Of a stretch of DNA of 64,000 nucleotides, positions 18,281-61,364 are shown piece by piece. The DNA is from a bacterium (GTDB taxonomy: Bacteria > Sysuimicrobiota > Sysuimicrobiia > Sysuimicrobiales > Kaftiobacteriaceae). Under the pieces are notes generated by a model, which had not been told where the DNA came from, did no database searches, and saw nothing but the letters and a program-made list of their open reading frames with translations. Position 1 is the stretch's first letter, and the number at the start of each line of letters is the position of its first letter. The stretch is taken from positions 31,740 to 95,739 of the forward strand of contig JBIOWP010000105.1 in assembly GCA_044868695.1 (NCBI GenBank). The letters run 5' to 3'. Made by a program: the position numbers and the translations under genes.

Positions 18281-18326
18281 AGGATAGGGGACGGCTTCGA
18301 GGGCAGGTATCGGGCGGGGAGGGGAT
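18281..18326 (-). promoter_or_regulatory. Palindrome-associated promoter of the doxX operon
   Basis: Minus strand ATCCCC-N6-CCCGAT, 22 nt, TATCCT. Confidence 0.55.
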
Positions 18327-18399
18327 TTCGGGATCAGGTCTAGGCCGTTGTCCCTTCGGGCACGGAACGTGACGCCGGCAAGAATTCCAGGGGTGGCGG

Positions 18400-19134
18400 A
18401 TGCGGGTCGGGCCGATCATGTCCAAAGGGCTGGTTGCGGTATTGCTGCTGGGGCCATGCGTCCCGCAGATCGATCCCCGCATGTTTTCAGCCCCCCCGGG
18501 CGCCCAGGTGCCGTTCGTCGCCACCGTCCAGGCCGAAGCCAGGCAGAAATCGATCCTGGCATCCTTCGAACGCAAACCGATCCTTCCTTACATGGCCGGA
18601 CCCAAGGTAATGCTCAGCACCGCGTACGTGGCCGCCCTCTCCGTATCCCTCGAGGCCGCCCCCGCGAGCTTCACCCGGCGCGCAGTCAGGGCGTCATCTG
18701 GGTCTGACCCCGGGGAGTATGCCCGAATCCTTCTGCAGCTTGCCATGCGGACCGGGGCCACGCTGGCGACCCCGCCGATTCAGTGGCCCGCCCGCGGAGG
18801 GCTGACCTCTCCGTTTGGGCGGCGATGGCGCCAGCACCACGACGGGATCGACATCGCTGCCCGGGAAGGAGCGCCCATCCACGCCGCCCGGGACGGCCGG
18901 GTGGTCTATGTCGGTTGGAAGGGCGGGTATGGGCTCACCGTCATCCTCGCCCACGGCAACGGGTTGCAGACGCTATACGGGCACGCCTCAGCGACGGTAG
19001 TCAAGCCCGGACAGGTCGTCAAGGCCGGACAGGTCATCGCGCGCGTCGGCAGCACCGGGATCGCGACAGGGTCCCATCTCCACTTCGAATTCCGCGTCAA
19101 CGGTCGCCCCGTCAATCCCCTGCGCTATCTCTGA
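18400..19134 (+). CDS. M23-family metallopeptidase
   Basis: HDGIDI, GYG..VI..H, TLYGH, ATGSHLHFE, VNP; start uncertain. Confidence 0.85.
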   Translation: MRVGPIMSKGLVAVLLLGPCVPQIDPRMFSAPPGAQVPFVATVQAEARQKSILASFERKPILPYMAGPKVMLSTAYVAALSVSLEAAPASFTRRAVRASSGSDPGEYARILLQLAMRTGATLATPPIQWPARGGLTSPFGRRWRQHHDGIDIAAREGAPIHAARDGRVVYVGWKGGYGLTVILAHGNGLQTLYGHASATVVKPGQVVKAGQVIARVGSTGIATGSHLHFEFRVNGRPVNPLRYL

Positions 19135-19139
19135 CCGGC

Positions 19140-19715
19140 CTACTCCGGAGCCGGATGAGAAAATTGCAGGATGTGTTCTCGCAATTGCATGAAACCCGGG
19201 TCTCCGAGGTACCCGCCTGACACGCGCCCACGGATCACCAGCTCCCCGTCGATGAAGAAAGTTGTGGGGAGTCCGGTCACCTGGTAGTGGGCGATCCGCG
19301 TCTGCTCCGGGTCGAAGACGTTGGGATAGGTAATCCCCAGCGTCTTGAGAAACGCCGCCGCCTCGTCGTAATCGTCTGCCACGTTGATGCCCAGGATCAC
19401 GACGCGCTGATTCCGAAGCTCCCGCCACGCCCGCTCCAGGACCGGCATCTCTTCCCGGCACGGCACGCACCAGGACGCCCAGAAGTTCAGCACAACGACC
19501 TTCCCCCGAAAGTCTGACAGCGAAACCGGTGGGCCGGCAAATGCCCGCAGCCGGAACTCCGGCGCCGGGCGCGGACGCTGTATAAGGGGCGCCTGCCGCA
19601 CCACTGTAGTTGGCGGGGCGGGCCGAGGCAGTTGGACCGCCAGAACCACGATACCCACTACAGCCGCAGCGACAGCACCCCAGAGGATGAGGATCCAGCG
19701 TCGCTTCCCAATCAT
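19140..19715 (-). CDS. TlpA/ResA-family thiol-disulfide oxidoreductase
   Basis: N-terminal TM anchor, VLNFWASWCVPCREE, GLPTTFFID. Confidence 0.92.
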   Translation of the reverse strand: MIGKRRWILILWGAVAAAVVGIVVLAVQLPRPAPPTTVVRQAPLIQRPRPAPEFRLRAFAGPPVSLSDFRGKVVVLNFWASWCVPCREEMPVLERAWRELRNQRVVILGINVADDYDEAAAFLKTLGITYPNVFDPEQTRIAHYQVTGLPTTFFIDGELVIRGRVSGGYLGDPGFMQLREHILQFSHPAPE

Positions 19716-19742
19716 CGCGTTTCCACTATACGCTACCGGAAA

Positions 19743-19788
19743 ATACCGTGCACGCCGGATGGCTGGGGACAGCGGCTCGCCCTATCGT
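19743..19788 (+). promoter_or_regulatory. Palindrome-associated promoter of mntH-usp
   Basis: ATACCG-N6-CCGGAT, 22 nt, TATCGT, then aaggag RBS. Confidence 0.5.
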
Positions 19789-19801
19789 AAAGGAGTCAAC
19801 C

Positions 19802-21115
19802 ATGCCGGAAGACGTGCACCTAAACACACGCGATGCCCATCGCTCCGGGCCCGCGTGGCTCTCGGCCGGGCCGGAGGTGCTGGAAGAACGCAGCCCGCGG
19901 CGGGGAGTGGCGCGACTGCTGCCGTTCCTCGGGCCGGCGTTTGTTGCCAGCGTTGCCTACATTGATCCCGGCAATTTCGCCACCAACATCGCCGCCGGCG
20001 CGCAGTTTGGTTACCTTCTGTTATGGGTCGTGCTGGCCAGCAATCTCACGGCGATGCTCGTGCAGGCCCTGTCCGCTAAGCTGGGAATCGCGACCGGCCG
20101 GAACCTGGCCGAACTGTGCCGCGACCGCTTTCAGCGTCCGGTAGTCTGGGGGATGTGGGTCGCGGGTGAGCTGGTGGCCATGGCCACAGACCTGGCCGAA
20201 TTTCTCGGCGCCGCGCTCGGCCTGACCCTCCTGTTCCATTTCCCGCTGTTTGTCTCAGCTTTGCTCGCCGGCGCCGTCACTCTGCTCATCCTGGCACTGG
20301 AGCGGCGCGGGTTCCGGCCGATCGAAGCCGTCATCACCGGATTTGTCGGTGTCATCGCAGTCTCGTACGTCATTGAGACCATTCTTGATCGACCGGACTG
20401 GCACGCCGTGGCCGTGGGAGCACTGGCGCCACGGTTTGCGGGAACAGAAAGCGTGCTGCTCGCGACCGGGATCCTGGGAGCCACGGTCATGCCCCACGTG
20501 ATCTTCCTCCACTCGGCGTTGATGCAACGTCGCATTGTGCCGCGCACTGAGGCCCAGGCCCACCGTCTCTACCGCTTTGAGGTCACCGACGTCGTGCTGG
20601 CCATGGGGCTGGCCGGAGTGGTAAACGCGGCGATGCTCATCATGGCCGCGTCCACGTTCCACGCGCGTGCGCTGACCCACATCGCCACCATCGACGAGGC
20701 GCACCGGACGCTGGCGCCGCTGCTGGGGCCGGCTTCCAGCACCATCTTTGCCATTGCGCTCCTCGCATCCGGTCTGTCGTCATCCACGGTAGGCACGATG
20801 GCCGGGCAGGTCATCATGCAGGGATTCTTGCACCGGACGATTCCGATCTGGATCCGCCGGCTGGTGACGATGGTGCCGGCCCTGGTCGTCATCGGAGTGG
20901 GATTGGACCCGACGCGGACGCTGGTGACCAGCCAGGTCGTCCTCAGCTTCGGCCTGCCTTTCGCGCTCGTGCCGCTGGTGCACTTCACCGCCCGCCGGGA
21001 TGTGATGGGTGGTCTGGCGAATCACCGCGTGACGACCGTCCTGGCCTCGGGCGTCACCGCCGTGATTATTGCGTTGAACCTAGTCCTGGTCTACCGGATG
21101 CTCACCGGAGGATAA
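19802..21115 (+). CDS. mntH: Nramp divalent metal transporter
   Basis: AYIDPGNFATN, GATVMPH, TMAGQVIMQGF, SQVVLSF. Confidence 0.94.
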   Translation: MPEDVHLNTRDAHRSGPAWLSAGPEVLEERSPRRGVARLLPFLGPAFVASVAYIDPGNFATNIAAGAQFGYLLLWVVLASNLTAMLVQALSAKLGIATGRNLAELCRDRFQRPVVWGMWVAGELVAMATDLAEFLGAALGLTLLFHFPLFVSALLAGAVTLLILALERRGFRPIEAVITGFVGVIAVSYVIETILDRPDWHAVAVGALAPRFAGTESVLLATGILGATVMPHVIFLHSALMQRRIVPRTEAQAHRLYRFEVTDVVLAMGLAGVVNAAMLIMAASTFHARALTHIATIDEAHRTLAPLLGPASSTIFAIALLASGLSSSTVGTMAGQVIMQGFLHRTIPIWIRRLVTMVPALVVIGVGLDPTRTLVTSQVVLSFGLPFALVPLVHFTARRDVMGGLANHRVTTVLASGVTAVIIALNLVLVYRMLTGG

Positions 21116-21117
21116 TC

Positions 21118-22056
21118 GTGTTCCGTCACCTGCTGGTCCCGCTCGATGGCTCGCGTTTGGCCGAGTCGGCACTCCCGGCCGCGGCCGACCTGGCGCGGCG
21201 CCTGGGTGCATCAGTGACCCTGCTGCACGTCCTGGAGCCGGATGCTCCGCCGGCCGTACACGGCGACCGTCATCTCCGGTCACCGGCAGAGGCGGATGGC
21301 TATCTCGCCGGCGCGGTAGACTGGTTGACCGCCCGTCAGGTTTCCGCGGAGGTCGCCCTCAACCAGCAGCAGGGCGATGTGGCCGCGAGCATCGCCCGGA
21401 TCGGGAGCGCCGTGGGGGCCGACTTGATCGCGCTCACGACGCACGGGCGAAGCGGTGTGCGTGGACTCCTGTTTGGCCGTGTGGCGCAGCAGGTACTGCA
21501 GCGGGGGAGGATCCCCGTGCTCTTGATCCGGCCGTCCGCCTCCGGCCGTGACGCCTCGTTTGCATGCCGGCGGATGCTGGTGGCTCTAGACGGCAGCGAC
21601 ACGGCCGAATACGCCCTTGCACCTGCGGCCGCGCTGGCCGCCGCCTGCGGGGCGGAGATCGTGCTGATGCGGGTTGTGCCGACGGTGGAAACCCTCTCTG
21701 GAGATCAGGCAGCCGCGGCGCGGCTGCTCCCCACAACCGCGGCGGCAGTGCTGGAGGTCGAAGCCTCCGAGGCAGCGAGCTACCTGGAACGTCTCGCCGG
21801 CGGAATGCGCCGCGAGGGGAGGACGGTGACTACGGTCATCGGCCGGGGGGACCCGGTCCGGGTCCTGGTCGACGCCGCAGAACGCCGCGAGATTGACCTG
21901 CTGATCGTGGCAACGCACGGACGATCCGGCGTCAGCGCCGTTTGGGCCGGTAGTATCGCCTCGCGCCTGGTAGAAACAGGTAGGACACCGGTCCTGCTAA
22001 TCCGGATTCCGCGCGCGGTCGGGTCCACGCCCGATACGATTCATCTACCCGCCTGA
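21118..22056 (+). CDS. Universal stress protein (two USP domains)
   Basis: LVPLDGS...THGRSG..G.VA..V...PVL present twice. Confidence 0.92.
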   Translation: MFRHLLVPLDGSRLAESALPAAADLARRLGASVTLLHVLEPDAPPAVHGDRHLRSPAEADGYLAGAVDWLTARQVSAEVALNQQQGDVAASIARIGSAVGADLIALTTHGRSGVRGLLFGRVAQQVLQRGRIPVLLIRPSASGRDASFACRRMLVALDGSDTAEYALAPAAALAAACGAEIVLMRVVPTVETLSGDQAAAARLLPTTAAAVLEVEASEAASYLERLAGGMRREGRTVTTVIGRGDPVRVLVDAAERREIDLLIVATHGRSGVSAVWAGSIASRLVETGRTPVLLIRIPRAVGSTPDTIHLPA

Positions 22057-22204
22057 TGCTGGCCCACAGCTCTGGCAATGGGACCGGTAACAAATAGAAG
22101 GAGGAGCACCGGATCTACCGGAGAGAAGTTCGGGAAGGCACGATGTCCTCCGCAGCGGATCGAGTCCTCCTGTCTCACACTGCGCGAATCCGCGGAAGGC
22201 GGGC

Positions 22205-22222
22205 ATCGGTTCGATGCCCGAT
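22205..22222. promoter_or_regulatory. Orphan copy of the ATCGGn-N6-nCCGAT palindrome, overlapping a 9-bp hairpin between convergent usp genes
   Basis: ATCGGT-TCGATG-CCCGAT; hairpin cgggcatcg-gtt-cgatgcccg at 22200-22220. Confidence 0.4.
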
Positions 22223-22254
22223 TCGATTGGGGCGGATGGAAGGCCTACGGGGTT

Positions 22255-22728
22255 CTAGGTGTCGCTCTGTCTGACCGTCAGCACGGGGATGCGGCTATGG
22301 CGGACGACGTACTCTGCGACGCTGCCGAAGAAGATGGCGGCCAGACCTGTGCGGCCATGCGTGCCCATCACGATGAGGTCGGTGCCGCCTTCCTTCGCCA
22401 CGTCGAGGATCGTCGTGCGCGGGGTGCCTTCGCGAATCATGGTTTTCGCCTGCGGGTGGCGCGCTGCGAGCTTAGCTATCCCCTCGTGTGCTTCGGCGCG
22501 CAGGGCGTCCACCAGCTGTCCAAACGCGGTCGCCGCAGCCATGCCCGTGGGCAGGCTGGCGGCACCGGCCAGCCCGAGGTCGACCACGTGCAGGATCACG
22601 ATCTCGGCGCCGTATGCGTCGCGCAGGCTCACCGCCCACCTCAGCGCCGATTCCGCGCTGGGGGAGAAGTCTGTGGGAGCCAGGATCCGCTTTACCCGCG
22701 GAAGAGTTTCACGCTGTGCTGCACTCAT
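22255..22728 (-). CDS. Universal stress protein
   Basis: RILAPTDFS, DLIVMGTHGRTGL...FGSVAEYVVRHS..PVL. Confidence 0.93.
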   Translation of the reverse strand: MSAAQRETLPRVKRILAPTDFSPSAESALRWAVSLRDAYGAEIVILHVVDLGLAGAASLPTGMAAATAFGQLVDALRAEAHEGIAKLAARHPQAKTMIREGTPRTTILDVAKEGGTDLIVMGTHGRTGLAAIFFGSVAEYVVRHSRIPVLTVRQSDT

Positions 22729-22732
22729 TTCC

Positions 22733-23899: not shown

Positions 23900-23904
23900 T
23901 TAGA

Positions 23905-27953: not shown

Positions 27954-28059
27954 CGCGACCTACGTGCCCGCTGAGCGGTCTGGAGGACCTCCAGCAACGG
28001 GCACAGCAGCCGGTTGGCAAGCTGGATTCAGTATGTCAGGCGGCCAACCGACGCGGGAA

Positions 28060-28105
28060 TTCCGGTCTAGAACCGATGGTTGACCCTGGTAAGGGGGCGT
28101 ATCTT
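28060..28105 (+). promoter_or_regulatory. Palindrome-associated promoter of usp-deoC-baeRF
   Basis: TTCCGG-N6-ACCGAT, 22 nt, TATCTT. Confidence 0.5.
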
Positions 28106-28139
28106 GGGAATCGAAGGGGTTCACAATGGGAGGAAACCG

Positions 28140-28610
28140 ATGAGAGACCAGACGACGCGACGGGTGTTGGTGGCAACTGATCTTTCCGACCAATCACCCG
28201 CGCTGATAGCCGCGGGAGCGGATGCCGCCCAGAAACTTGGCGCGGAGGTGATTGTTCTGCACGTGTTCGATCCGGAAACCTACGAGAGGATTTTCGGTGA
28301 GACCGGAATGCCGGTTGACCAGTACACCGGCTACCTTCGGGCAGAGCTGCAGGATCAGCTCAAGGCCGCAGGGGTGGGAACCGCGCGGCTGGAGATCATC
28401 GAGGGCCGCTCTATCGCATTGGCCATCCTCTCCACCGCAGCCCGCATGCGTGCCGACCTCATTGTGATCGGGATGCGCAGGGGGAAGGGGCTGGGCCGGA
28501 CGCTGGGAGGCGGGATAGCCGAGGAGGTGCTCCGCCGCGCCCGCACGGGCGTCCTCGTCATGCCCCGAGCCGCGCTGGACGTGATGGAGCCGGTCGCGGT
28601 GGCGTCCTGA
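28140..28610 (+). CDS. Universal stress protein
   Basis: RVLVATDLS, VLHV, ADLIVIG..G..L...GGIAEEVLRRA...VLV; ggagg RBS. Confidence 0.88.
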   Translation: MRDQTTRRVLVATDLSDQSPALIAAGADAAQKLGAEVIVLHVFDPETYERIFGETGMPVDQYTGYLRAELQDQLKAAGVGTARLEIIEGRSIALAILSTAARMRADLIVIGMRRGKGLGRTLGGGIAEEVLRRARTGVLVMPRAALDVMEPVAVAS

Positions 28611-28659
28611 GAGGGAAGCGGGTGCTGGGAGCTGACGTTGTTAAGGGTGGGAGGGGTCA

Positions 28660-29328
28660 GTGAGGATAACAGAGCTGGCAGGACATCTTGAGCATGCTGT
28701 GTTGAGCCCGCAGGCGAGTGTGACCGATGTCGAAGAAGGGGCGCGCATCGCGCTGCGCTGGGGGGTCCGGGCGCTGGTGGTCAAACCCTGTCATCTGCAG
28801 GTGGCCGTACGCCTGCTGGCCGGCAGCGGCGTGAAGGTCGTGACGGTCATCGGATTCCCTCATGGAGGGCAAACGACGGAGACCAAGGTGCTTGAGACGC
28901 GGCAGGCCGTTGCGGGGGGCGCGGAGGAAGTCGACATGGTGATCAACCTCGGCGCGCTGCGGCAGGGACAGACGGCGGCGGTGTTCTATGAGATCCGGGC
29001 CGTTGTGGAAGCTGCGGCCGGACGGCCGGTCAAAGTGATTCTTGAGAACGCCTACCTCACCGACACGCAGAAGCGGCTGGCCTGCCGGCTCGCGGCACAC
29101 GCCGGCGCTGCCTACGTGAAGACGAGCACCGGATTTGCACCCCGCGGGGCGACGGCGGCGGACGTCGCGCTCATGCGGCGCACCGGTCGCCGCGCGGTGG
29201 GCGTGAAAGCAGCTGGCGGCATCCGGACGTACGCGGACGCCATCGCGCTGCTTCAGGCCGGCGCCGACCTGCTGGGTACCAGCGCCACCGACGCGATCCT
29301 CAGTGAGGCCGTTGGTGAGGCCGCCTGA
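28660..29328 (+). CDS. deoC: Deoxyribose-phosphate aldolase
   Basis: TVIGFPHG, GAEEVDMVIN, VKVILE, YVKTSTGF, VKAAGGIR, LGTS. Confidence 0.94.
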   Translation: MRITELAGHLEHAVLSPQASVTDVEEGARIALRWGVRALVVKPCHLQVAVRLLAGSGVKVVTVIGFPHGGQTTETKVLETRQAVAGGAEEVDMVINLGALRQGQTAAVFYEIRAVVEAAAGRPVKVILENAYLTDTQKRLACRLAAHAGAAYVKTSTGFAPRGATAADVALMRRTGRRAVGVKAAGGIRTYADAIALLQAGADLLGTSATDAILSEAVGEAA

Positions 29329-29335
29329 TAACTGA

Positions 29336-29375
29336 AACTGCGGGACCAGGGATCGGGGACCCGGGACCAGAGACC
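29336..29375. repeat. Heptamer array (nGGGACC)n, same family as 2048-2171
   Basis: aactg-cgggacc agggatc ggggacc cgggacc agagacc; the flank matches the reverse complement of 2152-2171. Confidence 0.75.
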
Positions 29376-29396
29376 GCACAACGGCCGAGGAGGCGC

Positions 29397-30509
29397 ATGG
29401 TCGACATACGTGAAATCGACGAACTCGCGAAGTCCGGCCGGCAGGACGTCCTCTCCGTATCGCTGGACGTCGATCTGACCAAGCCTGACCACCAGCGGGC
29501 CAACCCCGCCTACCGGATCTGGCTGCGCGGGGCGCTCATGGACATTCTCGAGCAGGTGTCCAGAGAGCGCCGCGCCGACGTGGGTGAGTTGATCGATCGG
29601 ATTCTGACCAGAGTCGACGATCACCGCCACGGACGCGGCCTTGCGATTTTCGCAGCACCGGATCTCTGGCGCGAATACGTCCTGCCCGTTCCGCTGCCCA
29701 ACCGGGTTCATTATGGGCAGCCGGATCTCTTTCCGCTGCTGTGGGCGCTGGACGAGTACGAACCCTACGCCGTTCTTGCGGTTGACCGCGGGCAGGCACG
29801 GCTTCTCGTCATGCATCTGGGACAGACGGATGTGGTCGACCAGGATGTGCTGGTTCTGGAGACCGGCGACTGGCGCAAGACTTCGGGCCGGTCCCCAACC
29901 TACACAAAGCGGACGGGAACTGGGGCAACCCGCGGCGCTCAGCGAGACGTCTTCGATGCCCGAGTAGACGAGCAGGAACGCCGCTTTTGGCGCAGCGCTG
30001 CGGCGACGGCCCGCCGGACCATGCAGGACCTGGGGATCAGCCGCCTGATCATCGCAGGCCCGCCTGAGACCACCGCGGCTGTTGCCGGCCTCCTCGAGCA
30101 CGCTGGTCCGGTCCAGGTCGTGGCGGTGGTACCCGCGCCGCCATCGGCCAGTATCCCCCAGCTTAGAGAGCTGACGCTTCAGGCGGCGCTGGCAGAGGAG
30201 CACCGACGCGAGCAAAGTCTTGTGGCGGCGCTGATGGAGCGGCTGGGAAGCCCGGCGGGAGCAGTTGTGGGTCTGACGGCCACGCTCGAGGCGCTGACGA
30301 GAGGGCAGGCGCAGGTGGTGATCGTGGATCCCGGTCACCAGGCAGTCCGCGCGCAGATACTCTCAGAGCTGCCGCTGCTGGCCCGCCGGCATGGCGCCGC
30401 GCTAGAGATGGTCAGTGGCGAGGCAGCACGGCGGCTTGCGCCCCACGAAGGCGTCGGGGCCATCCTTCGGTACACCACAACAGCAGAACCAGCGGGGAGT
30501 AGGAACTAG
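29397..30509 (+). CDS. Bacterial aeRF1-like (baeRF/Balon-type) protein
   Basis: VLSVSLDVD, GRGLAIFA, LPVPLPNRV..G.P.L.PL, AVDR..ARL, LIIAGP, AVVGL.ATLEAL..G, GA.LE.V, GVGAILRY. Confidence 0.8.
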   Translation: MVDIREIDELAKSGRQDVLSVSLDVDLTKPDHQRANPAYRIWLRGALMDILEQVSRERRADVGELIDRILTRVDDHRHGRGLAIFAAPDLWREYVLPVPLPNRVHYGQPDLFPLLWALDEYEPYAVLAVDRGQARLLVMHLGQTDVVDQDVLVLETGDWRKTSGRSPTYTKRTGTGATRGAQRDVFDARVDEQERRFWRSAAATARRTMQDLGISRLIIAGPPETTAAVAGLLEHAGPVQVVAVVPAPPSASIPQLRELTLQAALAEEHRREQSLVAALMERLGSPAGAVVGLTATLEALTRGQAQVVIVDPGHQAVRAQILSELPLLARRHGAALEMVSGEAARRLAPHEGVGAILRYTTTAEPAGSRN

Positions 30510-34483: not shown

Positions 34484-34529
34484 ATCGGGCCGCGGCCCGA
34501 TTGTTCCTCTATGGAACCCTCCGTAGGCT
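34484..34529 (+). promoter_or_regulatory. Palindrome-associated internal promoter of rbsB-rbsK
   Basis: Perfect ATCGGG-CCGCGG-CCCGAT, 22 nt, TAGGCT. Confidence 0.65.
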
Positions 34530-36533: not shown

Positions 36534-38501
36534 ATGCCGTCGACCAGCGAGACCGGGGCGGGTGTGCGCCAGGTTGCCACCCGCCTCGCCGTTCCTGAAC
36601 GCCGCCCCAACCCGGCATCGGACCGACTGCGGCACCTGCTGCCCGGCGCCCAGCCCCTGCTGTGCGCCGTGCTCCTGGCTGCGGGAGGGGTCACGGACCG
36701 GATCGCGGGGCACGCACCCGCCATGCCGGTGTATCTCCTTGCCTACCTGGCAGGTGGCGCAGGCAGCGCCGCGTCGGCCTGGGCGTCCCTGCTGCGGCGG
36801 CGCATCGACGTAAATCTGTTGATGCTGCTCGCCGCGGCGGGCGCCGCGCTCCTCGGAGAGTGGTGGGAAGGCGGTGTCCTGCTGCTGCTTTTCTCGCTCA
36901 GCAACGCCCTGGAATACTACGCCATGCACAGGACACGGCGGGCGATCGGCGCCCTGATGACATTACGTCCCCAGGAAGCGACGGTCCGGCGGGACGGTCA
37001 TGAGGTGGTCGTGCCGGTCGACGACCTGCGTGTCGGCGAGGTGATGATCGTCGGCCCCTCCGACCGGCTGCCCGCGGACGGCCGGGTCGTGCGGGGACTC
37101 TCGAGCATCGACCAGTCGCCGATTACCGGCGAATCTGTCCCCGTCGATGTCTCGCCGGGTTCAACCGTCTTTGCGGGAACCATCAACCAGCGCGGCAGCC
37201 TGGAGATTGAAGTCACGAAGTCGGCGGAGGACACCACGCTGGCCAGGATCATCGCGCTCGTGGAAGAAGCCCAGGCGGCCCAGCCGCCTGCCCAGCGGAT
37301 GATCGACCGATTCGGGCAGTTGTACGCCGTCGGGGTGATCGCCGCCGCCGCCGGCACGTACGCGGTGCTGCGGGCTCTCGCCGCGCCCGGCGACGTGGCG
37401 TTCTACCGGGCCATCACGCTCCTGGTGGTGGCGTCACCGTGCGCCGTGGTGATCGCGACACCGGCGGCCGTCCTATCGGCGATCGCCGCGGGGGCGCGCC
37501 AAGGGGTCTTGTTCAAGGGCGGCGTCCATCTGGAGCAACTCGCGGCGGTCAGAACGGTGGTTTTCGACAAGACGGGGACCCTGACGGCGGGTAAGCCGAT
37601 TGTCACCGACGTGATCCCAGTCGTCGGGGACTCGCGCGAAATCCTTCAGCTCGCCGGCGCCCTGGAGCAGCGGTCCGAGCACGCGCTCGCCGAAGCGGTC
37701 GTCCAGGCGTGCCGAAGCCGGGGGATCGGCCTGTTATCCCCGGAGACCTTCGAGGCTGTGACCGGGCGTGGAGTGCGCGGGCGCGTCGGGCGGCAGACGG
37801 TGCGCGTCGGCAGCGAGCAGTTCATGACCGACGAAAGCATCTCGATGTCCAATGGGACGCGCGCTCATGTGGCCCTGCTGCGCCACGAGGGCAAGACGCC
37901 GATCCTCGTCGCGACCGATGAGGTGATTGGCATCCTGGCTGTTGCCGACACGGTCCGACCTCAGGCGAACACCGCGATCCGGGCGCTGCGGGCGCAGGGC
38001 ATCGACCGGATCGCCGTCCTCACGGGAGATCACCGGGAGGTGGCCGACGCCATCGCAGGCGGCCTCGAGATCGACGACGTGCGCGCGGGCCTGCTGCCGG
38101 ACGAGAAGGCGTCCGCGGTCCGCGAGTTGACCGCACAGGGCCCGACCGCGATGGTCGGGGACGGCATCAATGACGCGCCGGCACTGGCGACCGCGAGCGT
38201 CGGGATTGCGATGGGCGCTGCGGGCACCGATGCCGCGATGGAGACGGCGGATGTCGTGCTTATGGGCGACGATCTCACGCGCCTCCCGTACGCCATCGCA
38301 CTGTCCCGGCGAACCCGGCGCGTGGTTCTGCAAAGCCTCAGCTTCGCCGCGCTTGTGATTGCCGTGCTCATCACCGCGTCGCTGGGATTCGGCCTGCGGC
38401 TCGCCTTCGGGGTGGTGGGGCACGAGGGCAGCACGGTCGTCGTCGTGCTCAACGGGCTCAGGCTGCTCCGGTTCAGCAGGCGGTCTGCGGGAGTGGACTA
38501 G
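36534..38501 (+). CDS. Heavy-metal P1B-type ATPase, P1B-4 signature
   Basis: TGES, SPC in the TM helix, DKTGTLT, SEH.LA, GDGIND, HEGST in the last TM. Confidence 0.92.
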   Translation: MPSTSETGAGVRQVATRLAVPERRPNPASDRLRHLLPGAQPLLCAVLLAAGGVTDRIAGHAPAMPVYLLAYLAGGAGSAASAWASLLRRRIDVNLLMLLAAAGAALLGEWWEGGVLLLLFSLSNALEYYAMHRTRRAIGALMTLRPQEATVRRDGHEVVVPVDDLRVGEVMIVGPSDRLPADGRVVRGLSSIDQSPITGESVPVDVSPGSTVFAGTINQRGSLEIEVTKSAEDTTLARIIALVEEAQAAQPPAQRMIDRFGQLYAVGVIAAAAGTYAVLRALAAPGDVAFYRAITLLVVASPCAVVIATPAAVLSAIAAGARQGVLFKGGVHLEQLAAVRTVVFDKTGTLTAGKPIVTDVIPVVGDSREILQLAGALEQRSEHALAEAVVQACRSRGIGLLSPETFEAVTGRGVRGRVGRQTVRVGSEQFMTDESISMSNGTRAHVALLRHEGKTPILVATDEVIGILAVADTVRPQANTAIRALRAQGIDRIAVLTGDHREVADAIAGGLEIDDVRAGLLPDEKASAVRELTAQGPTAMVGDGINDAPALATASVGIAMGAAGTDAAMETADVVLMGDDLTRLPYAIALSRRTRRVVLQSLSFAALVIAVLITASLGFGLRLAFGVVGHEGSTVVVVLNGLRLLRFSRRSAGVD

Positions 38502-38782
38502 CGGGTCTTCTTGCGGGCCAGGATCTTCTCAGCCAGTGCCGTCAGCCAGGCGTTCTCCCGCAGCGCGGAGCGGTGGAGACGGCGGTCACGCGCGGCGCCC
38601 TCGCGGATCGAGGCGAGGGTCCGGTGGTGCTGGCGGGCTTCCTGGCGGAGCCGGGAGCGCGTAACCCGTCCCGACTGCCGCTCACGGTGCAGGGCAAGCT
38701 TATGCTCGTCACCGGCGTGCACCGCACTGTGTTCCCCGAGCATCACGCTGCTGTACCAGAGCCGTCTGGCCATCTGCCTCAC
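38498..38782 (-). CDS. Small basic His/Arg-rich hypothetical protein
   Basis: 94-aa ORF filling the gap, with palindrome-type promoter upstream; start 38782 (GTG) or 38773 (ATG). Confidence 0.5.
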   Translation of the reverse strand: MRQMARRLWYSSVMLGEHSAVHAGDEHKLALHRERQSGRVTRSRLRQEARQHHRTLASIREGAARDRRLHRSALRENAWLTALAEKILARKKTR

Positions 38783-38790: not shown

Positions 38791-38860
38791 AGCGTAGGCT
38801 CCAAGCGTTATTGGCGCCTATCAGGCGGCGAGCCGATTCGGCATAGGGTCCGGACCCGAT
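38791..38860 (-). promoter_or_regulatory. Two tandem palindromic sites plus -10 element
   Basis: ATCAGG-N6-GCCGAT (38820-38837) and ATAGGG-N6-CCCGAT (38843-38860); minus-strand TACGCT 23 nt downstream. Confidence 0.6.
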
Positions 38861-48463: not shown

Positions 48464-51144
48464 TCATTCGACCCGCCTGACAGCCCCCCGGAGCCATGCC
48501 CCCAACGGGATCGTCCCGGCATCCGCTCGGATCAGCGCTACGGCGACCGCCGGCAGCGCCGCGGTACTCGGATAGATGAGATACCGTGGCGACGAGAGCG
48601 GGTGGAACTTGCGCTTGAACTGATGAAGCCCCTTAAAATTGTAGAATCGGTTCATGTGCTCATAGATGAAGTGCACCGCCCGCTCAACGGCCGGGTCCTC
48701 CGATCGCTCTCCAACACCCGCCAGCGGGCTCAACCCCAGGTTGAAGGTGGCATAGCCTCGGCCCCTGGCCCGCTCCAGTAAAGCGGCAAAGAGGAAATCC
48801 ATCGTGCCCGACTCCGCATCACGCCGGCGGCGCATCAGATCGATGGTCGACTCGTTGCGTTGATATTCAGAGACGATGTTGGCAAACGCCATGACCTGAC
48901 CGTGCGCGTTGCGCACAATCATGACCGGACCATCCCGGAGATACTCCTCGTCAAACCATCCCAAAGAAAAACGCTTCTCCGTCCCTTTGACCATCGTGAG
49001 CCACTCGTCGCTGACTAGCCGCAGTTCGCGCAGCAGGTCATCGGGGAGCGGCGGCAGTTGTACCTCGCTGCGGTACCCGAGCCTGGTCATCCGGTTCACC
49101 GCGCCCCGGAGTTCTTTGTTCGGTCCTCCGGACAACGTAAAGCCGCTCAGGTCCACGATGGCTTCATCCCCGATCCGCAAGACCCGGAAGCCGGCAGCCG
49201 TGTAGGCGTCGAGGAGGTCCGGAAGCGTCTGGTAGAAGGCCGGGACCCAGTCGTTGCCTGCGCAGTGAGTGGCAAACGCGGCGATGGCGGCAGATAGATC
49301 GGCGGCCGGTCCAATGGGATCGCCCAGCGCCACGGCGACCCGTCCTCTGACGGCATAGGCGACCATGGATCCGCGCGGGCTGAAGTAGTACGACTTGTCT
49401 TCGAACAGGGTGAAGCGGGCCAGCGACGAGCGACCGTGGGCCTCTACGCTACTCCGAGCCCGCGCCCGTTCTTGAGGTGTGGCCGGGCGACGCACGAGCA
49501 CCGGTCGGCTCAGCATCACCGTGGCATAGCCAATCGTCGCGAGCGCCACCCATAGATGGAGTCGGCGAAATACCGGCCGAATCCAGTCAGAGGCTGAAGC
49601 CCTGGATCCGAGAACTCCGTGAACATGATGACAGTTTGCGCCAGCGCCGCCGTGATGCTGTAGTGAAACTGGAAGTGACGGTCCAGCAGGTAGAAGCCCG
49701 CCGCGCCGTACGCAAGCGTGAATCCGAACGCGCCGAGCAGCGTACGCAGTCCCTGCCCCGCGGACGGAGGATCTGAACCGGCATGAAAGTGAGGCCGCAG
49801 TATCATCAGCAAAGCTGCCAGAGTTGCGGCCAGCATCGCCTCCTCATAATCCAAGCCCTTGATCAGATGAGTGACCGCTGAAATGACAAGGAGCAGGAGG
49901 GTCAGCCACCACGCCACGCGCTTACGCCGCAATAAGTTGCCCGCCAGCGCCAGGAGACCGAACCCGGCCAGCGCGGTGATCAAGCGGGCACCGTGGCGGA
50001 TCCCGATGGGGAACGCCTGTACCAGGATCTCGAGCCGCGCATCCAGCGACGGTGTGATTGCTGATAGCACGTTCATCGCGCCGATCAGCGCGGCGAGCCC
50101 AGCGGCGACATGAACCCCCCAGGCTTCCGGCGAGATGCGTGCAGCGACCTGAAAGGTCTGCACACGACGCAAGAGCACGAATCCCGCGAGGAGCGGCAGC
50201 CAGAAGGTCAGGCCGCGAAACGCGACCGCGATGACGGTCGAGCGTTCGGCGGGCACGCCCAGCGAGGCGAAGACCAGCGCCATCACGCCTTCAACGACGC
50301 CGATCCCTTGCGGCGTGACCGCGACGATCCAGAACAAGATGCCCATCGCATAGCCGGCGACCAGAATGCCCGGACCGACCGGTCCGTGGAAGGCGAGGAA
50401 CAGCAGGTACAGGCTGATCAGGTCCAGCCCGTGAGCGCACAGGGCAATCCCCAGCGCCCGCGCCAGCCGCGGGAGATGGGCCGCGACCATCACCGAGGCT
50501 TCAGCGAATTCGCCAGCGGTTTTCGAGGCCCACGTTTCGGAAAGGAACCCGCGATGGCTCAAGACTGCTGCGACGCGGTTCGCGCTGCGCTGCACCCAGG
50601 CCAGCATCCGCAGCAGCCACTCCCGGCGCCACAGCCCCAGGAGAAGTACCGCGCTCAGGCCACCGATGACGAGGAGCAGGACGGCGGCCCCGGCCACTTC
50701 ATACGGTTTCAGATCGTGATAGGTGAATAGATACGCGAGTCCGGCGAGGAGCACAACCACGAATGCCGTCAGATCGGCGATCAGCGCCAGCAGCACGGCC
50801 GCTGCCGCTCGGCCCGCAGGATAGCCTCGCCGGGCAGCATCGTCGACGAACAGCGCCGCTCCACTGACGCCGCCGGTCGGCGCGGCCACGTTCACTGCCA
50901 GGGAAGCGAACACGGTGGGGAGCAGTTGAGCAAGTGGCAAACGAATGTCTACGGCGGCAAACGCAGCTCGGTAGAGGCCGGCATAGACGAGGTAGTACAC
51001 AGTCTGCAGACCGGCGGCCGCCATTACCCACGCCCACCGGCCCTGCCGGAGCGTCTGCGCCAGGTGCTCAAGTTCCGTGAGGCGGCTGACGACCAGCCAG
51101 ACTCCACCAATCAGCAGCGTTCGGTAGAGCCACTGGCGGGTCAT
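48464..51144 (-). pseudogene. mprF: MprF-type aminoacyl-phosphatidylglycerol flippase/synthase split by a 1-bp frameshift near 49550
   Basis: 5' ORF has flippase TMs (TPQGIGVVE, AFRGLTFW, HLIKGLDYEEA); 3' ORF has the synthase domain (ALGDPIG, GDEAIVDL, EKRFSLG, DLMR, GTMDFLF, FNLGLSPL, YNFKGL..FKRKF.P); one extra G joins them. Confidence 0.82.
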
Positions 51145-51223
51145 GATGCCACGCAGCACCGGAGGGTCTGGAAACCGAAAGTGAACTTCTGGGACCGAGC
51201 AGGAGGCCCTTCTATTGGCCCGG

Positions 51224-52429: not shown

Positions 52430-53488
52430 TCACGAGACGGCTCGGAGAGATTCGATGAGGTTCGCCAACCACGCCACCAGCCGGTCCCAGAGCCGTGGCG
52501 CAGACGCGATGCCGGTGCGTTCCGCCGCGGCGACCAGGCTCTGCGGCGACACGTCGCCCACGACGGTGATCACGCGACCATCGTGCGCCCAGTGTACCAG
52601 TGTGCGCAGTCCGAATGCGTGGACCCATACGGGGCCGTCTGGAGTGTAGATCACCCGGCTGTCCTGCGGCGGTGAAGCTACCGCGCCGCGGCGCTGGTAG
52701 ACCACCAGAGTAGCTAGGCCGTCCGAGTAGACGCTCTGCAGGACCGGCTCACCACTGCCGGGCAGGTAATCGCCCACCTTGTGAAAACCCGCCGGGAGGG
52801 CGATCCGCAGCGGCACCCCACCAGCGGCGAGTGAAGAGCTGGCGGCCAGGCGGGCCGGCGGCTGCTGGGTCAACCGCAGGTCGGATGGCGGGAGCTGGCG
52901 GCTGCGCCATCCGACGGGCTTGACCTCAAACGAGAGGTAAATCGTCGTCTCACCGATCCCACCCGCGTGACCCTGCCGCTCCGACCGGAGCACGACGCCG
53001 GTCGCATCGTCGACATCGATGCGACGTGAAGGGCGGTCGCCGGCGCGCGGCACCAGATCCACGCGTGTGACCCGGCGACCCAAGAGGCTTTCGGCCGCGG
53101 TATCGATCCGATAGTTCTCCAGCAGCCACGGGAGGTGACTGCCGGTCATGGCATCCCGATCGCCCGGCGGCCGCGTCGCGTGCGTGCCTGTCCGCCGTAG
53201 CGGATCGAAACGGATCTCGTCGGCGTCGCGGCGCCACACCGTCCACCGGCCGGCTGGTCCAACCGCGCGATAGTCCAGCTCGGACCATCCGGCCGGGTCA
53301 TAGGCGATCCTGACTAGGGACGCCGAGACATTGCGCCCGTCCCAGGTGACGATGACCTGCTCGCCAGCATACGCCACGCGCGCCGGTGCACGAGCGGCCT
53401 GCACCAGCGGAGCCGGTGCGTCTTGCGCCAGAACCGGCGCGGCGGCGGCCAGCACGGCGGCCACGACGGCTGCCGCGCTACGGACCAT
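52430..53488 (-). CDS. MucB/RseB-like exported sigma-E regulatory protein
   Basis: Signal peptide, Y.GEQ, LLENY, LGR....V.L.PR, D.ATGVVLR.E, LPAGF, YSDGLATL.VY, VVGDV. Confidence 0.75.
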   Translation of the reverse strand: MVRSAAAVVAAVLAAAAPVLAQDAPAPLVQAARAPARVAYAGEQVIVTWDGRNVSASLVRIAYDPAGWSELDYRAVGPAGRWTVWRRDADEIRFDPLRRTGTHATRPPGDRDAMTGSHLPWLLENYRIDTAAESLLGRRVTRVDLVPRAGDRPSRRIDVDDATGVVLRSERQGHAGGIGETTIYLSFEVKPVGWRSRQLPPSDLRLTQQPPARLAASSSLAAGGVPLRIALPAGFHKVGDYLPGSGEPVLQSVYSDGLATLVVYQRRGAVASPPQDSRVIYTPDGPVWVHAFGLRTLVHWAHDGRVITVVGDVSPQSLVAAAERTGIASAPRLWDRLVAWLANLIESLRAVS

Positions 53489-53939
53489 CGAGGCTCTCTG
53501 CCGGCCGCAGCAGATTGTAGGGAAGAGTGCTGCCCAGGTACGACGCCAGGGCCAGGTCGGCCATTGGGTGCAGGACGGCGAACTCGGCGTGCTGCCGAAA
53601 GTACCTGATGCCGGCCGCGCGGTCGGGCAGCGGCGACGGCAGGAGCCGTATCTGCAGCAGCAGAGCCACCGCGACCGCGACGGCCGCCAGCGCAGCGATC
53701 CACCGCGGCAGGACCGGCCGCCGAGCGGCCGCATCAATCCTGGCCAAAGTGCGCGGAAGCAACGAGGGATGGGGGGTACGGTCCGAAACTGCGTGGAGCA
53801 GATTCCTGACCGCCTGAAGGTCATCCAGAGTCCCCCGGCATTCCGCGCACTCTGCCAGGTGCGCAGCGACCGCGGCCGCCTCCTCCGGGGTGAGGGTCGC
53901 GTCCAGATAGGCGGTGAGCTGGTCGCTGAGGTGCGGCAT
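53478..53939 (-). CDS. Zinc-binding (HxxxCxxC) transmembrane anti-sigma factor
   Basis: LTAYLD..L......VAAHLAECAECR plus one TM; TGATG coupling to the sigma gene. Confidence 0.88.
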   Translation of the reverse strand: MPHLSDQLTAYLDATLTPEEAAAVAAHLAECAECRGTLDDLQAVRNLLHAVSDRTPHPSLLPRTLARIDAAARRPVLPRWIAALAAVAVAVALLLQIRLLPSPLPDRAAGIRYFRQHAEFAVLHPMADLALASYLGSTLPYNLLRPAESLDGP

Positions 53940-54535
53940 CACAGGTCGCCCCGCTTTATGTCGTCCACGTACGGCCGGAGCCACTCCCGCAGCGCGAGTC
54001 GCGCCCGGTGCAGCCGCGAGCGAATTGTGCCCACCGGACAGCGGAGAATCTCCGCCGCGTCCTCGTACGGCATGCCCTGCAGGTCGACCAGGGTGACCAC
54101 GGCCCGCGCGTCCGGCGGCAGTGCCAGCAGCGCCCGCAGCACCGGTCCGTCCAGCGCGCCCGCGGCGATCTCCCCGGGATCCGGCTGGTCCGTCGCGGCC
54201 GTGCCGGCCACCTCGTCGAGCGAAAATACTCGGCTGCGGCGATCGCGGCGGACCCGGTCCACGAACGAGTTGTGCATGATGCGAAAAAACCACCGGTCAA
54301 AGCGCGTCCCGGGCTGAAAGCGATGGAACGCTCGGAACGCTTCCTCCGCGGCCTGCTGCAGCAGGTCCTCGCTGTCGGTGGTGTTGCCCGTCAGGTGGTA
54401 GGCGAAGCGATAGGCATGATCCCAGTGCGTGGCGAGCAGGTCCGCGAACTCCTCGCGGGGGGAGGTCCGGTCTGAGGCCTGTGTGAGCTCACTCACCGGC
54501 AGCGAAGGATCGAGTGTGGCCTGTGCAGCAGCCAT
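53939..54535 (-). CDS. ECF RNA polymerase sigma factor
   Basis: DSEDLLQ..AF, F.RW.FRI..N, L.D.QG..YEDAAEIL.CPVGTIRSRLHRAR. Confidence 0.93.
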   Translation of the reverse strand: MAAAQATLDPSLPVSELTQASDRTSPREEFADLLATHWDHAYRFAYHLTGNTTDSEDLLQQAAEEAFRAFHRFQPGTRFDRWFFRIMHNSFVDRVRRDRRSRVFSLDEVAGTAATDQPDPGEIAAGALDGPVLRALLALPPDARAVVTLVDLQGMPYEDAAEILRCPVGTIRSRLHRARLALREWLRPYVDDIKRGDL

Positions 54536-54543
54536 CGCGAAGA

Positions 54544-58081: not shown

Positions 58082-58132
58082 TGGCCATACCTCCCTGTAG
58101 GGCGATCTTCCCCGACTCGCTTCTACACCACC

Positions 58133-58177
58133 AGTGTACGTCAAAGAGTCCCGGGCAAGATCGGCTTTTGACCCGAT
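58133..58177 (-). promoter_or_regulatory. Palindrome-associated promoter of the pspC-like gene
   Basis: Minus strand ATCGGG-TCAAAA-GCCGAT, 21 nt, TACACT. Confidence 0.6.
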
Positions 58178-58210
58178 CTTGATGTGAGAATTGTCCCGAC
58201 TCCTCGCGGC

Positions 58211-58639: not shown

Positions 58640-58658
58640 GTGGACGCGGTTCAGCGGA

Positions 58659-58826
58659 TCAGGCCATCGATTCCTTCTCGGATGGTTCGGCCGGCGGCTC
58701 GCTCCCCCAGTAGCAGTCGTCGCACAACCGAATACTGATGGCCTGCTGCTCGAGCTCCCGAGTGGCCCGGCGCAGGCCGCAGCGGGAACAGGTGTCGGTC
58801 GGTCTGATCTCCCTCTGTACGCTCAT
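58659..58826 (-). CDS. Small CxxC...CxxC zinc-finger protein (55 aa, absent from ORF track)
   Basis: Hand translation MSVQREIRPTDTCSRCGLRRATRELEQQAISIRLCDDCYWGSEPPAEPSEKESMA; aggagg RBS. Confidence 0.75.
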   Translation of the reverse strand: MSVQREIRPTDTCSRCGLRRATRELEQQAISIRLCDDCYWGSEPPAEPSEKESMA

Positions 58827-58895
58827 TGCGCGCCTCCTCTTAGCGGCAGATGGCCCTGCTTGCCATTATCTTTGCTCCGACCGCCGCGGAGGGCT

Positions 58896-58984
58896 ATCGG
58901 GTCACCCCCCGATTCGCTATCGGGTGACAGTGGCGATGATCGGGTTGCCGCCCGATACCGGGGCCGTGTGAGGATGAATAAGCT
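58896..58984 (+). promoter_or_regulatory. Array of palindromic sites plus -10 element upstream of the SDR gene
   Basis: Perfect ATCGGG-N6-CCCGAT at 58896-58913 and 58939-58956, half-site at 58919, TAAGCT 22 nt after the last site. Confidence 0.72.
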
Positions 58985-59041
58985 AAGGGGTAGCACCACA
59001 TACCAGGGGCGGAACCGGCGACTGCCGGCTGGAGGTGAGTC

Positions 59042-59836: not shown

Positions 59837-59845
59837 AAATGCCAG

Positions 59846-60499
59846 GTGAGAACCAAAATGTCACTGCGGTACATCCCGGCCTTGAGATTCCGCTTGCTTA
59901 CCCCGCTGTACGATCCGCTTATGGAGCGGTGGACCGGGGCACGGACCATGCGCCGAGCAGTGATCGAAGCCCTGGATCTCCGTCCCGGCCTCCGGCTGCT
60001 GGAACTGGGATGTGGACCGGGGCGTCTGGCCATTGAGATCAAGCACCGATGGCCCGACATCTCAATTGATGCTCTGGACGTCGACCCGGCCATTCTGGAA
60101 GTCGCCCGCCGCAATGCGGCGAATGCGGGCGTCGCCATTAACTTCCGCGCTGCCGATATCACCGACCCCCGGTTGCCCGGCGTCTATGACCGCGTGTACT
60201 CCACACTTGTGTTCCATCATCTACATCCTGCGGGCAAGCAGCGGGCTCTCGCCGGCCTGCGCCGCATTCTGCGTGATGATGGACGTCTGGTCGTGGCGGA
60301 TTTCGGTCGGCCGCAAGACTGGCTGCAGTGGGCCCTGCTCACGTTTTGGGGATTCTTTGACGGTATCAAGAACACCGCATCCCATCGGGACGGCGGGTTC
60401 GAAGAGCTGCTGCGGAGCGGATTCGCCGAGGTCCGCACCGAGGCGGCATGGCGCACCGCCTTCGGCACGCTGGAGCTCTTTGTCTGCCGACCGAGCTAA
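59846..60499 (+). CDS. Class I SAM-dependent methyltransferase
   Basis: LTPLYD, LLELGCGPG, LDVDP..L..AR, LVFHHL, L.VADFG. Confidence 0.88.
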   Translation: MRTKMSLRYIPALRFRLLTPLYDPLMERWTGARTMRRAVIEALDLRPGLRLLELGCGPGRLAIEIKHRWPDISIDALDVDPAILEVARRNAANAGVAINFRAADITDPRLPGVYDRVYSTLVFHHLHPAGKQRALAGLRRILRDDGRLVVADFGRPQDWLQWALLTFWGFFDGIKNTASHRDGGFEELLRSGFAEVRTEAAWRTAFGTLELFVCRPS

Positions 60500-60578
60500 G
60501 GCCACTACTTCTGCTCTGCCGGCTGCAAGGCGCCATTTGACAAAGAACCGGCCAAGCACGGGCGGGATGGCCACTGGA

Positions 60579-60615
60579 TTGACATCTTGATGCTTCTATC
60601 CTAACATCAAGATGT
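60579..60615 (+). promoter_or_regulatory. vapBC promoter with overlapping autoregulatory inverted repeat
   Basis: TTGACA-17 nt-TAACAT; perfect 11-bp IR acatcttgatg-N12-catcaagatgt. Confidence 0.8.
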
Positions 60616-60859
60616 GCGAACGACTCTGACCCTCGATAATGATGTGGCTGCGGCTGTGAAGGCCGAAGTGCGCCGGTCGGGGCGTCCCCTCAAGCAAATC
60701 GTGAACGACTTGCTGCGGACGGCTCTGCACCTGGGGCGGAAGGGCCAGCGGGTTCCATCGTTCACCGTCCGAGCCAAACCGCTGGGCATGCGGCCGGGCC
60801 TAGACTACGACCGCGTCGGCGAGCTTGTGGAAGAGCTGGAAGGCCCGCTCCACCGATGA
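60614..60859 (+). CDS. vapB: VapB-type ribbon-helix-helix antitoxin
   Basis: MRTTLTLDNDV....VN.LLR..L; ATGA overlap with the PIN gene. Confidence 0.88.
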   Translation: MRTTLTLDNDVAAAVKAEVRRSGRPLKQIVNDLLRTALHLGRKGQRVPSFTVRAKPLGMRPGLDYDRVGELVEELEGPLHR

Positions 60860-61296
60860 TCCTGCTCGACGCGAACCTGCTCCTCTACGCCTACAATTCT
60901 TCGTTTCCTCAGCACAAGCCCGCTCGCGCCTGGCTGCAAAAGGCGCTGTCTTCGCCCGCCCCTGTCGCCTTTCCGTGGGCAACGCTGCTCGCATTCACTC
61001 GCATCGGCACGAACCCGCGTGCGTTCCCTGAGCCGCTGACCCTGGCCGAAGCGACATCTGTCGTGTCCGCGTGGATGGCGCAACCCACGGTGGTGATCGT
61101 GCAGCCGACGGAGCGGCATTGGGAGATCCTGAGGGGGCTGCTGGCATTAACGCAGGCGCGAGGAGCCGAAGTCTCGGACGCGCACCTCGCGGCACTGGCC
61201 ATTGAACATGGTGCAACTCTCTGCACCACGGATCGGGGTTTTGCCAGGTTCCCCGAACTAAAATGGATGGATCCACTGGTTCCCCAAACTACGTGA
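60856..61296 (+). CDS. vapC: VapC PIN-domain toxin
   Basis: MILLDANLLLYA, F.RI.TNPR, DAHLAALAIEHGA.L.TTDRGFARF. Confidence 0.92.
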   Translation: MILLDANLLLYAYNSSFPQHKPARAWLQKALSSPAPVAFPWATLLAFTRIGTNPRAFPEPLTLAEATSVVSAWMAQPTVVIVQPTERHWEILRGLLALTQARGAEVSDAHLAALAIEHGATLCTTDRGFARFPELKWMDPLVPQTT

Positions 61297-61318
61297 CCAA
61301 CGTAGGGGGATGGCGAGA

Positions 61319-61364
61319 ATCGGGTCGTGGCCTGATACTCCCCCTTCCGCTGTTCCCGTACGCT
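61319..61364 (+). promoter_or_regulatory. Palindrome-associated promoter of the Met-rich gene pair
   Basis: ATCGGG-N6-CCTGAT, 22 nt, TACGCT. Confidence 0.65.

Follow-up and report, generated by a model that had tools for sequence, protein, structure and literature searches.

The window analysed here is the terminal 64 kb of contig C105 in a 2.6-Mb genome of 67% GC (G000) from the phylum Ca. Sysuimicrobiota (formerly CSP1-3). Members of this phylum are likely facultative anaerobes according to PMC11604079, where neither 'regulator' nor 'two-component' appears in the main text. Genes were called with a codon model built for this analysis and annotated with Pfam and NCBIfam. At the right end of the window, a NarL-family response regulator (RR1; REC and GerE domains; 62540..63190, minus strand; recognition helix SIKTVQTHRAHI) adjoins the C-terminal part of a sensor kinase (GAF end, HisKA_3 and HATPase_c domains; 63180..64000, minus strand), as in the layout of NarL/LuxR two-component systems. 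An earlier, sequence-only reading of this DNA had proposed that a palindrome found upstream of several genes of the window defines a regulon under this DosR/NreC-like pair. We refined the palindrome to the 18-nucleotide (nt) sequence ATCRGG-N6-CCYGAT, hereafter the box, and RR1 is its predicted binder. Contig C13 shares 127 identical bases with the end of C105, so that the regulator locus extends onto C13. Positions 16790-19670 of that contig (locus L039) carry the kinase N-terminus (18631-19670, overlapping with C105), tandem boxes and genes for a multicopper oxidase, a second regulator (RR2), pfk and an aldolase. These four genes are divergent from the kinase gene and lie downstream of the two tandem boxes, which are situated just past the contig end and were missed previously. 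RR2 is a paralogue of RR1, 68% identical to it and with an identical recognition helix.

The five strict copies reported earlier (22205, 34484, 58160, 58896 and 58939) and the three one-mismatch copies (38820, 38843 and 61319) were all found at these coordinates. With up to one mismatch, 14 matches occurred in the window compared to 4.08 +/- 1.89 in 100 shuffles, none of which reached 14. Five of the 13 strict copies in the genome fall in the window, where about 0.2 would be expected (p 2e-6); the strict copies are indeed rare by chance, as had been claimed, with an expectation slightly above the previous estimate of less than 0.1. As to whether the motif is equally frequent in coding DNA, a concern raised by the sequence-only reading, the box proved mainly intergenic. 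Using ATCGGG-N6-CCCGAT with at most one mismatch, seven matches were counted in the 5,320 intergenic nt of the window and one in its 58,680 coding nt, while the rest of the genome showed three in 228,320 intergenic nt and 10 in 2.30 Mb of coding DNA, a split which rests on the codon-model gene set.

We then built a matrix from relatives only (62 intergenic sites from 18 loci), excluding the genome of the window to prevent circularity. At a threshold of at least 14 bits, it retrieved eight intergenic sites in the window (5.3 kb), two on contig C13 and four in other intergenic DNA (228 kb; p ~1e-13). The length of the spacer is strict: in the 18 loci, with at most one mismatch, 28 intergenic sites had a spacer of 6 and none a spacer of 4, 5, 7 or 8. 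For wider scans, we used a pattern combining the box with a TAnnnT hexamer at a distance of 21-23 nt, on 31 whole genomes and subsequently on 73 genomes of the phylum. In the 31 genomes, the native spacing gave 174 matches compared to 8 for a spacing shifted to 28-30 nt. In the 73 genomes, 562 matches were found in 65 of them (0-45 per genome) and the reversed pattern gave two. A survey of relatives had been suggested by the sequence-only reading, and the box thus recurs phylum-wide. Taken together, these results provide good support for the box as a real, conserved operator of a phylum-wide regulon. In a metagenome scan with the same pattern, among the 81 matches listed, offsets of 21, 22 and 23 nt occurred 20, 31 and 30 times, respectively, and 35 of the 81 lay outside long open reading frames (ORFs); the listed matches appear to be mostly chance occurrences, with a few that look like this phylum. 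A literature search (subscription papers and supplements excluded), which also covered YhcY/YhcZ binding and an NreC consensus, found no description of the box or of the whole system.

The position of the box relative to the promoter is equally constrained. In relatives, TAnnnT was located 21-23 nt past the box on 33 of 81 gene-facing sides and on 5 of 43 other sides; its background rate at arbitrary upstream positions is 2.2% (310/14,147). In 38 fetched loci, 111 of 114 box-plus-hexamer hits were intergenic and 108 faced a gene start, counts that are partly circular since 20 of the 38 loci were picked around pattern hits. When the hexamer is numbered -12 to -7, the box occupies -52 to -35 in 86 aligned promoters, with its centre at -43.5, and its promoter-side half is the more constant one. 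The -35 region of these promoters is poor, with at most three of six matching bases in 69 of the 86. Tandem copies are frequent: 30 of 55 close neighbour pairs are spaced by 22-25 nt. Such a layout is that of activator-dependent promoters with cooperative upstream sites. The box is, with high probability, an activator site. The anatomy proposed earlier for eight promoters of the window was largely borne out: the eight TAnnnT hexamers lie at the offsets claimed, none of the eight exceeds three of six -35 matches, and the notion of an activator-type site abutting the -35 position agrees with the fixed location of the box. The TGGCGA and AC flanks, also described at that time, are present at the promoters concerned and are not conserved across the 86 aligned promoters; they were rejected as a conserved element.

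We next considered the individual sites and the genes they face, taking as a reference the frequency of a box plus -10 hexamer among genes of the fetched loci (179/1,120). The box at 18309..18326 (minus strand, 10.3 bits; TATCCT at 18281-18286) faces doxX, followed by genes for two membrane proteins and haem-copper oxidase subunits II, I, III, III and IV (12347..18211, minus strand; Pfam). These genes likely form one box-driven, presumably co-transcribed unit; among the 10 doxX homologues found in fetched loci, a box plus -10 precedes seven. The tandem boxes at 28035 and 28060 (28035..28077, plus strand, 25-nt pitch; TATCTT at 28100-28105) face usp, deoC and baeRF10 (28080..30509, plus strand; Pfam/NCBIfam), usp encoding a universal stress protein (USP). 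The partner at 28035 (9.4 bits) had been missed previously. The baeRF10 protein resembles ribosome hibernation factors of the Balon type, with scores below the family cut-offs, and its only homologue in the fetched loci (1/1) has a box plus -10. A perfect box at 34484..34501 (plus strand, 22.9 bits; TAGGCT at 34524-34529) faces rbsB; one of two rbsB homologues has a box plus -10, and the box is retained ahead of the rbsB orthologue of genome G011. The tandem boxes at 38843 and 38820 (38820..38860, minus strand, 23-nt pitch; TACGCT at 38791-38796) face the ORF 38498-38782, for which both homologues (2/2) have a box plus -10. The box at 58160..58177 (minus strand, 16.8 bits; TACACT at 58133-58138) faces a PspC-domain gene, of which no homologue was found among the fetched loci. 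Finally, the box at 61319..61336 (plus strand, 20.3 bits; TACGCT at 61359-61364) faces the Met-rich/SHOCT pair 61399-62447, and two of three homologues of the Met-rich gene have a box plus -10.

A divergent pair of boxes is found at 58896..58956. The box at 58939 faces a gene for a short-chain dehydrogenase/reductase (SDR; TAAGCT at 58979-58984), with a box in none of the two SDR homologues of the fetched loci. The box at 58896 was left unexplained by the annotated genes, and a target was predicted from it: an unannotated gene for a small protein of 55 amino acids (aa) with a CxxC..CxxC arrangement (58659..58826, minus strand; AAAGAT at offset 22), absent from the sequence-only reading. The prediction was borne out, as all six homologues in the fetched loci (6/6) have a box of 13-21 bits located 65-89 nt upstream, and this gene is the likely target of the box.

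Other sites of the window are less clear. The weak box at 19743..19760 (plus strand), upstream of mntH-usp and previously counted among the eight promoters, is doubtful: it scores 4.2 bits with the relatives' matrix and the mntH hexamer directly abuts the ribosome-binding site. None of three mntH homologues in fetched loci has its own box, one of them being the second gene in a box-driven operon. Two unoriented boxes lie close to converging usp genes. The first (22018..22035, 17.1 bits), inside the 3' tail of a usp gene and without TAnnnT, had been overlooked; the second (22205..22222, 20.7 bits) is the strict copy described earlier, and has a non-canonical CAGTGT at offset 22 only, with no TAnnnT and no clear gene target. 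The gap between the converging genes (22056-22255) shows two strong boxes and purine runs resembling ribosome-binding sites, with no convincing ORF, and may be a vestige of a lost gene or a small RNA. The genome has three USP genes, all of them inside the window.

Several neighbouring features were recorded in and around this region. An antitoxin-PIN pair with a canonical TTGACA-17-TAACAT promoter is inserted within the box-rich region (60579-61296). A tRNA gene (11683-11755), a possible insertion site, marks its left edge; apart from this one tRNA, no RNA family was detected in the window. The window also includes genes for an extracytoplasmic-function (ECF) sigma factor, a zinc-finger anti-sigma factor and an RseB-like protein (52430-54535), and split genes for an MprF-like lysylphosphatidylglycerol synthase (48464-51159). 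Elsewhere in the genome, on contig C137, a gene for a secreted protein is preceded by two moderate boxes separated by 47 nt (L210, 4060-4124), with a TATGGT hexamer at offset 21, and may be a distant member of the regulon.

To which protein the box belongs was addressed by co-occurrence. The tight clade of RR1 is present in 56 of the 73 genomes, with a median of 8.5 pattern matches in these 56 and of 1 in the 17 others; the 13 genomes lacking both regulator and kinase have 0-3 matches each. The associated p values (2e-6 and 4e-7) are overstated since kin are related, and the contrast also holds inside genera g3, g7, g9 and g16. All 24 clade members compared have a near-invariant recognition helix, which differs from that of the other NarL proteins of the genome. 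Close homologues of RR1 bear the source name NreC in 15 of 120 cases, while no NCBIfam equivalog passed its cut-off for this NreC-like regulator of the window. Box counts that follow the RR1 clade across the 73 genomes, together with these names, are in line with the NarL/NreC-like binder originally put forward. The RR1 clade would thus quite probably bind the box, as judged from co-occurrence and helix conservation, and RR2, carrying the same helix, may act as binder or co-binder.

The complete kinase, assembled from both contigs, is 577 aa long and comprises six hydrophobic segments, one GAF domain, HisKA_3 and HATPase_c. Many orthologous kinases are shorter (about 400 aa), having no membrane part, and the GAF cysteines are still invariant. 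A kinase-query scan of the genome collection returned five loci. In PMC4601167, the motif Cys-X7-Cys-X-Cys-X17-Cys is given as the [2Fe-2S] site of the AirS GAF domain. The GAF of the window holds three of these four cysteines at the exact spacing, the first position being Gly. Among 120 homologues, the spacing is CxC-X17-C in 112 and CxC-X19-C in three, three have the full motif and two are fragments. The window GAF aligns with a full-motif protein, from a mostly Bacillota cluster, at 31% identity (E 6e-22); this homologue bears no gene name, so that it is the motif that ties the GAF to AirS. The GAF also holds an invariant histidine. The predicted structure is a confident GAF fold (pLDDT 86.6), where the third cysteine ends one strand and the histidine begins the next; the histidine could be the fourth cluster ligand. 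The three cysteines plus a fourth ligand (His or an exchangeable one) likely hold an iron-sulfur (Fe-S) cluster, to judge from the spacing and its conservation. A haem-GAF or Fe-S PAS sensor had been suspected earlier in the N-terminus beyond the window. Inspection of this region on C13 gave no sign of either, Pfam detecting a GAF and no PAS in the kinase, and an AirS-type cysteine GAF was found instead. A sequence search of the PDB gave no match to the DosS GAF, and the GAFs of DosS/DevS came at ranks 28 and 50 in the fold search. The same three-cysteine GAF was also seen in SpoIIE/RsbU-type phosphatases of about 600 aa (P0090-P0115), two of which are source-labelled as Chloroflexota-type. 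The literature search found no description of three-cysteine Fe-S GAF kinases.

The content of the regulon gives some access to the signal. In the window, it comprises doxX with the haem-copper oxidase, usp-deoC-baeRF10, rbsB, small ORFs, pspC, SDR and the Met-rich pair. In relatives, where annotation covered a selected subset of first and operon genes, box-driven stress and dormancy genes encode USPs, CBS proteins, Hsp20 and baeRF10. Other box-driven genes encode pyruvate:ferredoxin oxidoreductase (PFOR), HypF, NosZ, molybdopterin reductases and multihaem cytochromes, as well as alanine dehydrogenase, HemA, Ccm-type export, malic enzyme, cupredoxins, CueP and CsoR-like repressors. The presence of USPs and a Balon-like factor among box-linked genes agrees with the DosR-like targets announced by the sequence-only reading; Balon-type factors of mycobacteria are induced by hypoxia, as stated in PMC10901736. 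The description as a regulon of the accessory region stands for the clustering near the regulator-kinase pair; it does not for the extent, since the regulon is phylum-wide and includes aerobic respiratory genes. Low oxygen is the best reading because of the dormancy and anaerobic share of the targets, and on this genomic evidence we lean towards activation when oxygen falls. At four loci of relatives (L046, L050, L055 and L057), other two-component systems, a CRP/FNR gene and modules of multihaem cytochrome c and cytochrome b are box-driven; such box-driven regulators suggest a regulatory hierarchy.

We propose the following mechanism. At low oxygen, the Fe-S cluster of the kinase GAF would be intact and the adjacent RR1 phosphorylated. 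The phosphorylated regulator dimer would bind the box and recruit the housekeeping RNA polymerase at promoters without a usable -35, with upstream tandem boxes adding cooperative binding. RR2, with the same helix and located behind boxes, would likely amplify the response. The output would consist of dormancy and stress proteins and of a remodelled respiration and central metabolism. As a whole, an activator regulon of RR1 and the box, with a kinase active when its GAF cluster is intact and low oxygen as the most probable signal, has in our estimate a little better than an even chance of being correct.

Several observations weigh against this proposal, and some of them favour other explanations. 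That the palindromes arose by chance in GC-rich DNA could be argued from the several other spacer lengths that have 5-11 copies in this high-GC genome; this origin is ruled out by the spacer, shuffle, coding/intergenic and -10-offset controls, and we assign it a negligible probability. A more serious objection concerns the sense of the signal. With the same box, regulator and Fe-S sensor, the kinase could be active when its cluster is oxidised, and the regulon would respond to oxygen arrival or to a redox shift. Full kinase activity was indeed reported for AirS with an oxidised [2Fe-2S]2+ cluster (PMC8774646), and box-driven haem-copper oxidases, citrate synthase and copper proteins fit oxygen arrival equally, as do malic enzyme, proline dehydrogenase, haem and cytochrome c biogenesis and the multicopper oxidase among the targets. 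This alternative is nevertheless unlikely in view of the oxygen-sensitive or anaerobic targets PFOR, HypF, NosZ and molybdopterin reductases, and of the USP/CBS/Hsp20/Balon-like set, typical of hypoxia regulons. The nature of the ligand can also be questioned: of the 115 homologues that bear the motif, 112 lack the first cysteine of AirS, and searches by sequence (PDB) and by fold brought up no solved Fe-S GAF relative, the fold search also giving no close relative with a cofactor. The Cys/His site might bind copper or another metal, making the regulon a response to metal supply or metal stress, as multicopper oxidase, cupredoxins, CueP, a CsoR-like repressor, MntH, VIT1, the Met-rich/SHOCT pair and a P1B ATPase are box-driven or adjacent to box-driven genes. 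However, the majority of targets are metabolic or dormancy genes, oxidases and NosZ also need copper proteins for assembly, and the cysteine spacing is that of a demonstrated [2Fe-2S] sensor. We consider a metal response very unlikely.

The identity of the binder is the other point at issue. Among the 56 regulator-bearing genomes, 12 have at most two matches, including all seven of genus g11; in this genus (L030, L031, L065-L069), regulator, kinase and helix are kept with 0-2 pattern matches per genome, and what few boxes there are lie in front of genes for a CooC-like ATPase and a sulfhydrogenase-like subunit. Moreover, boxes, targets and regulator are clustered (12 of the 16 matches of the near-closed genome G031 lie within 150 kb), and the correlation could be mimicked if an assembly or genome had lost them together. 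An upstream box was found at only 11 of 31 clade regulator genes; for the genes of these loci in general, the figure was 217 of 1,120 (p 0.025). Furthermore, a stressosome (RsbRST-like) and extracellular polysaccharide (EPS) locus that encodes a separate kinase and NarL pair (contig C53 of the same genome, L209, 4641-14987; also L206, L207, L208 and L150) is accompanied by near-identical variant boxes with the same -10 spacing, also in G007, G013 and G011, which all lack the RR1 clade. The box is thus not unique to this clade, while these sites support a NarL-type binder in general. The true binder could then be the stressosome-linked NarL pair, a CRP/FNR protein or an island-encoded regulator, with RR1 and its kinase as co-clustered passengers. 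Yet genomes with the stressosome pair alone hold one or two pattern matches and no regulon, and boxes are located immediately before clade regulators in 9 of 24 genomes. As for CRP/FNR, its presence is untied to box counts, with no gene found in four genomes with 7-22 matches and five copies in genomes with 0-1, and it was rejected as binder. Altogether, another binder seems quite unlikely, and we retain RR1 acting through the box, with low oxygen as the most probable signal.

If this is correct, the global regulator of a widespread uncultured phylum would be known together with its operator, and its targets could be listed by computation. For each genome of the group, the box would show which genes of respiration, carbon metabolism and dormancy are co-controlled; it finds small genes missed by annotation, and its predictions are directly testable in metatranscriptomes. 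A look-up of public RNA runs listed none. More tentatively, a kinase with an Fe-S GAF (three Cys and His; soluble or membrane-anchored) and two NreC-like regulators in positive feedback might constitute the master oxygen switch of the phylum and combine the roles that FNR and DosR play elsewhere, the same GAF serving as redox input of the Chloroflexota SpoIIE/RsbU-type phosphatases. The type of system is familiar; its combination, box and range were not found in the literature searched. The sensor appears to be an AirS-type GAF in a three-cysteine form, which is combined with an output resembling NreC and a regulon resembling that of DosR.

Each of these three components has a known counterpart. 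AirS-AirR (YhcSR) of Staphylococcus aureus shares a kinase with GAF and HisKA_3 domains and the CxC-X17-C spacing. It differs by its first cysteine, gone here, and by the six-segment membrane anchor present in this genome; the regulator here is NreC-like, 45% identical to the one beside a Bacillus AirS-type kinase, with another helix. NreB-NreC of staphylococci is comparable by the NreC-named regulator homologues and the GC-rich palindrome: phosphorylated NreC binds such a palindrome and activates under anoxia via an Fe-S kinase (PMC8139620, PMC5694512 and PMC8774646). NreB carries a [4Fe-4S] PAS domain, as given in the title of a reference, and works with the nitrate sensor NreA, in contrast to the GAF found here with or without a membrane anchor, and NreBC controls nitrate genes whereas the regulon here is broad. 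The NreC site may share the G-run spacing of the box. Finally, DosR/DevR-DosS/DosT of mycobacteria and OsdR-OsdK of Streptomyces share a NarL-family regulator, a palindromic GC-rich site and a clustered regulon with USPs, a heat-shock protein and a Balon-type factor (PMC5069765 and PMC10901736). DevR is only the fifth PDB match (E 1.5e-34), and DosS and DosT have haem GAFs, in contrast to the single Cys-rich GAF of the kinase described here. The OsdR/DevR consensus published in PMC5069765 is 16 nt long, and its G and C runs are separated by eight bases, whereas the box has 18 nt, six bases between the runs and ATC..GAT ends. The system is DosR/OsdR-like in its targets and clustering, yet not a member of that group, as this published consensus differs from the relatives' matrix.

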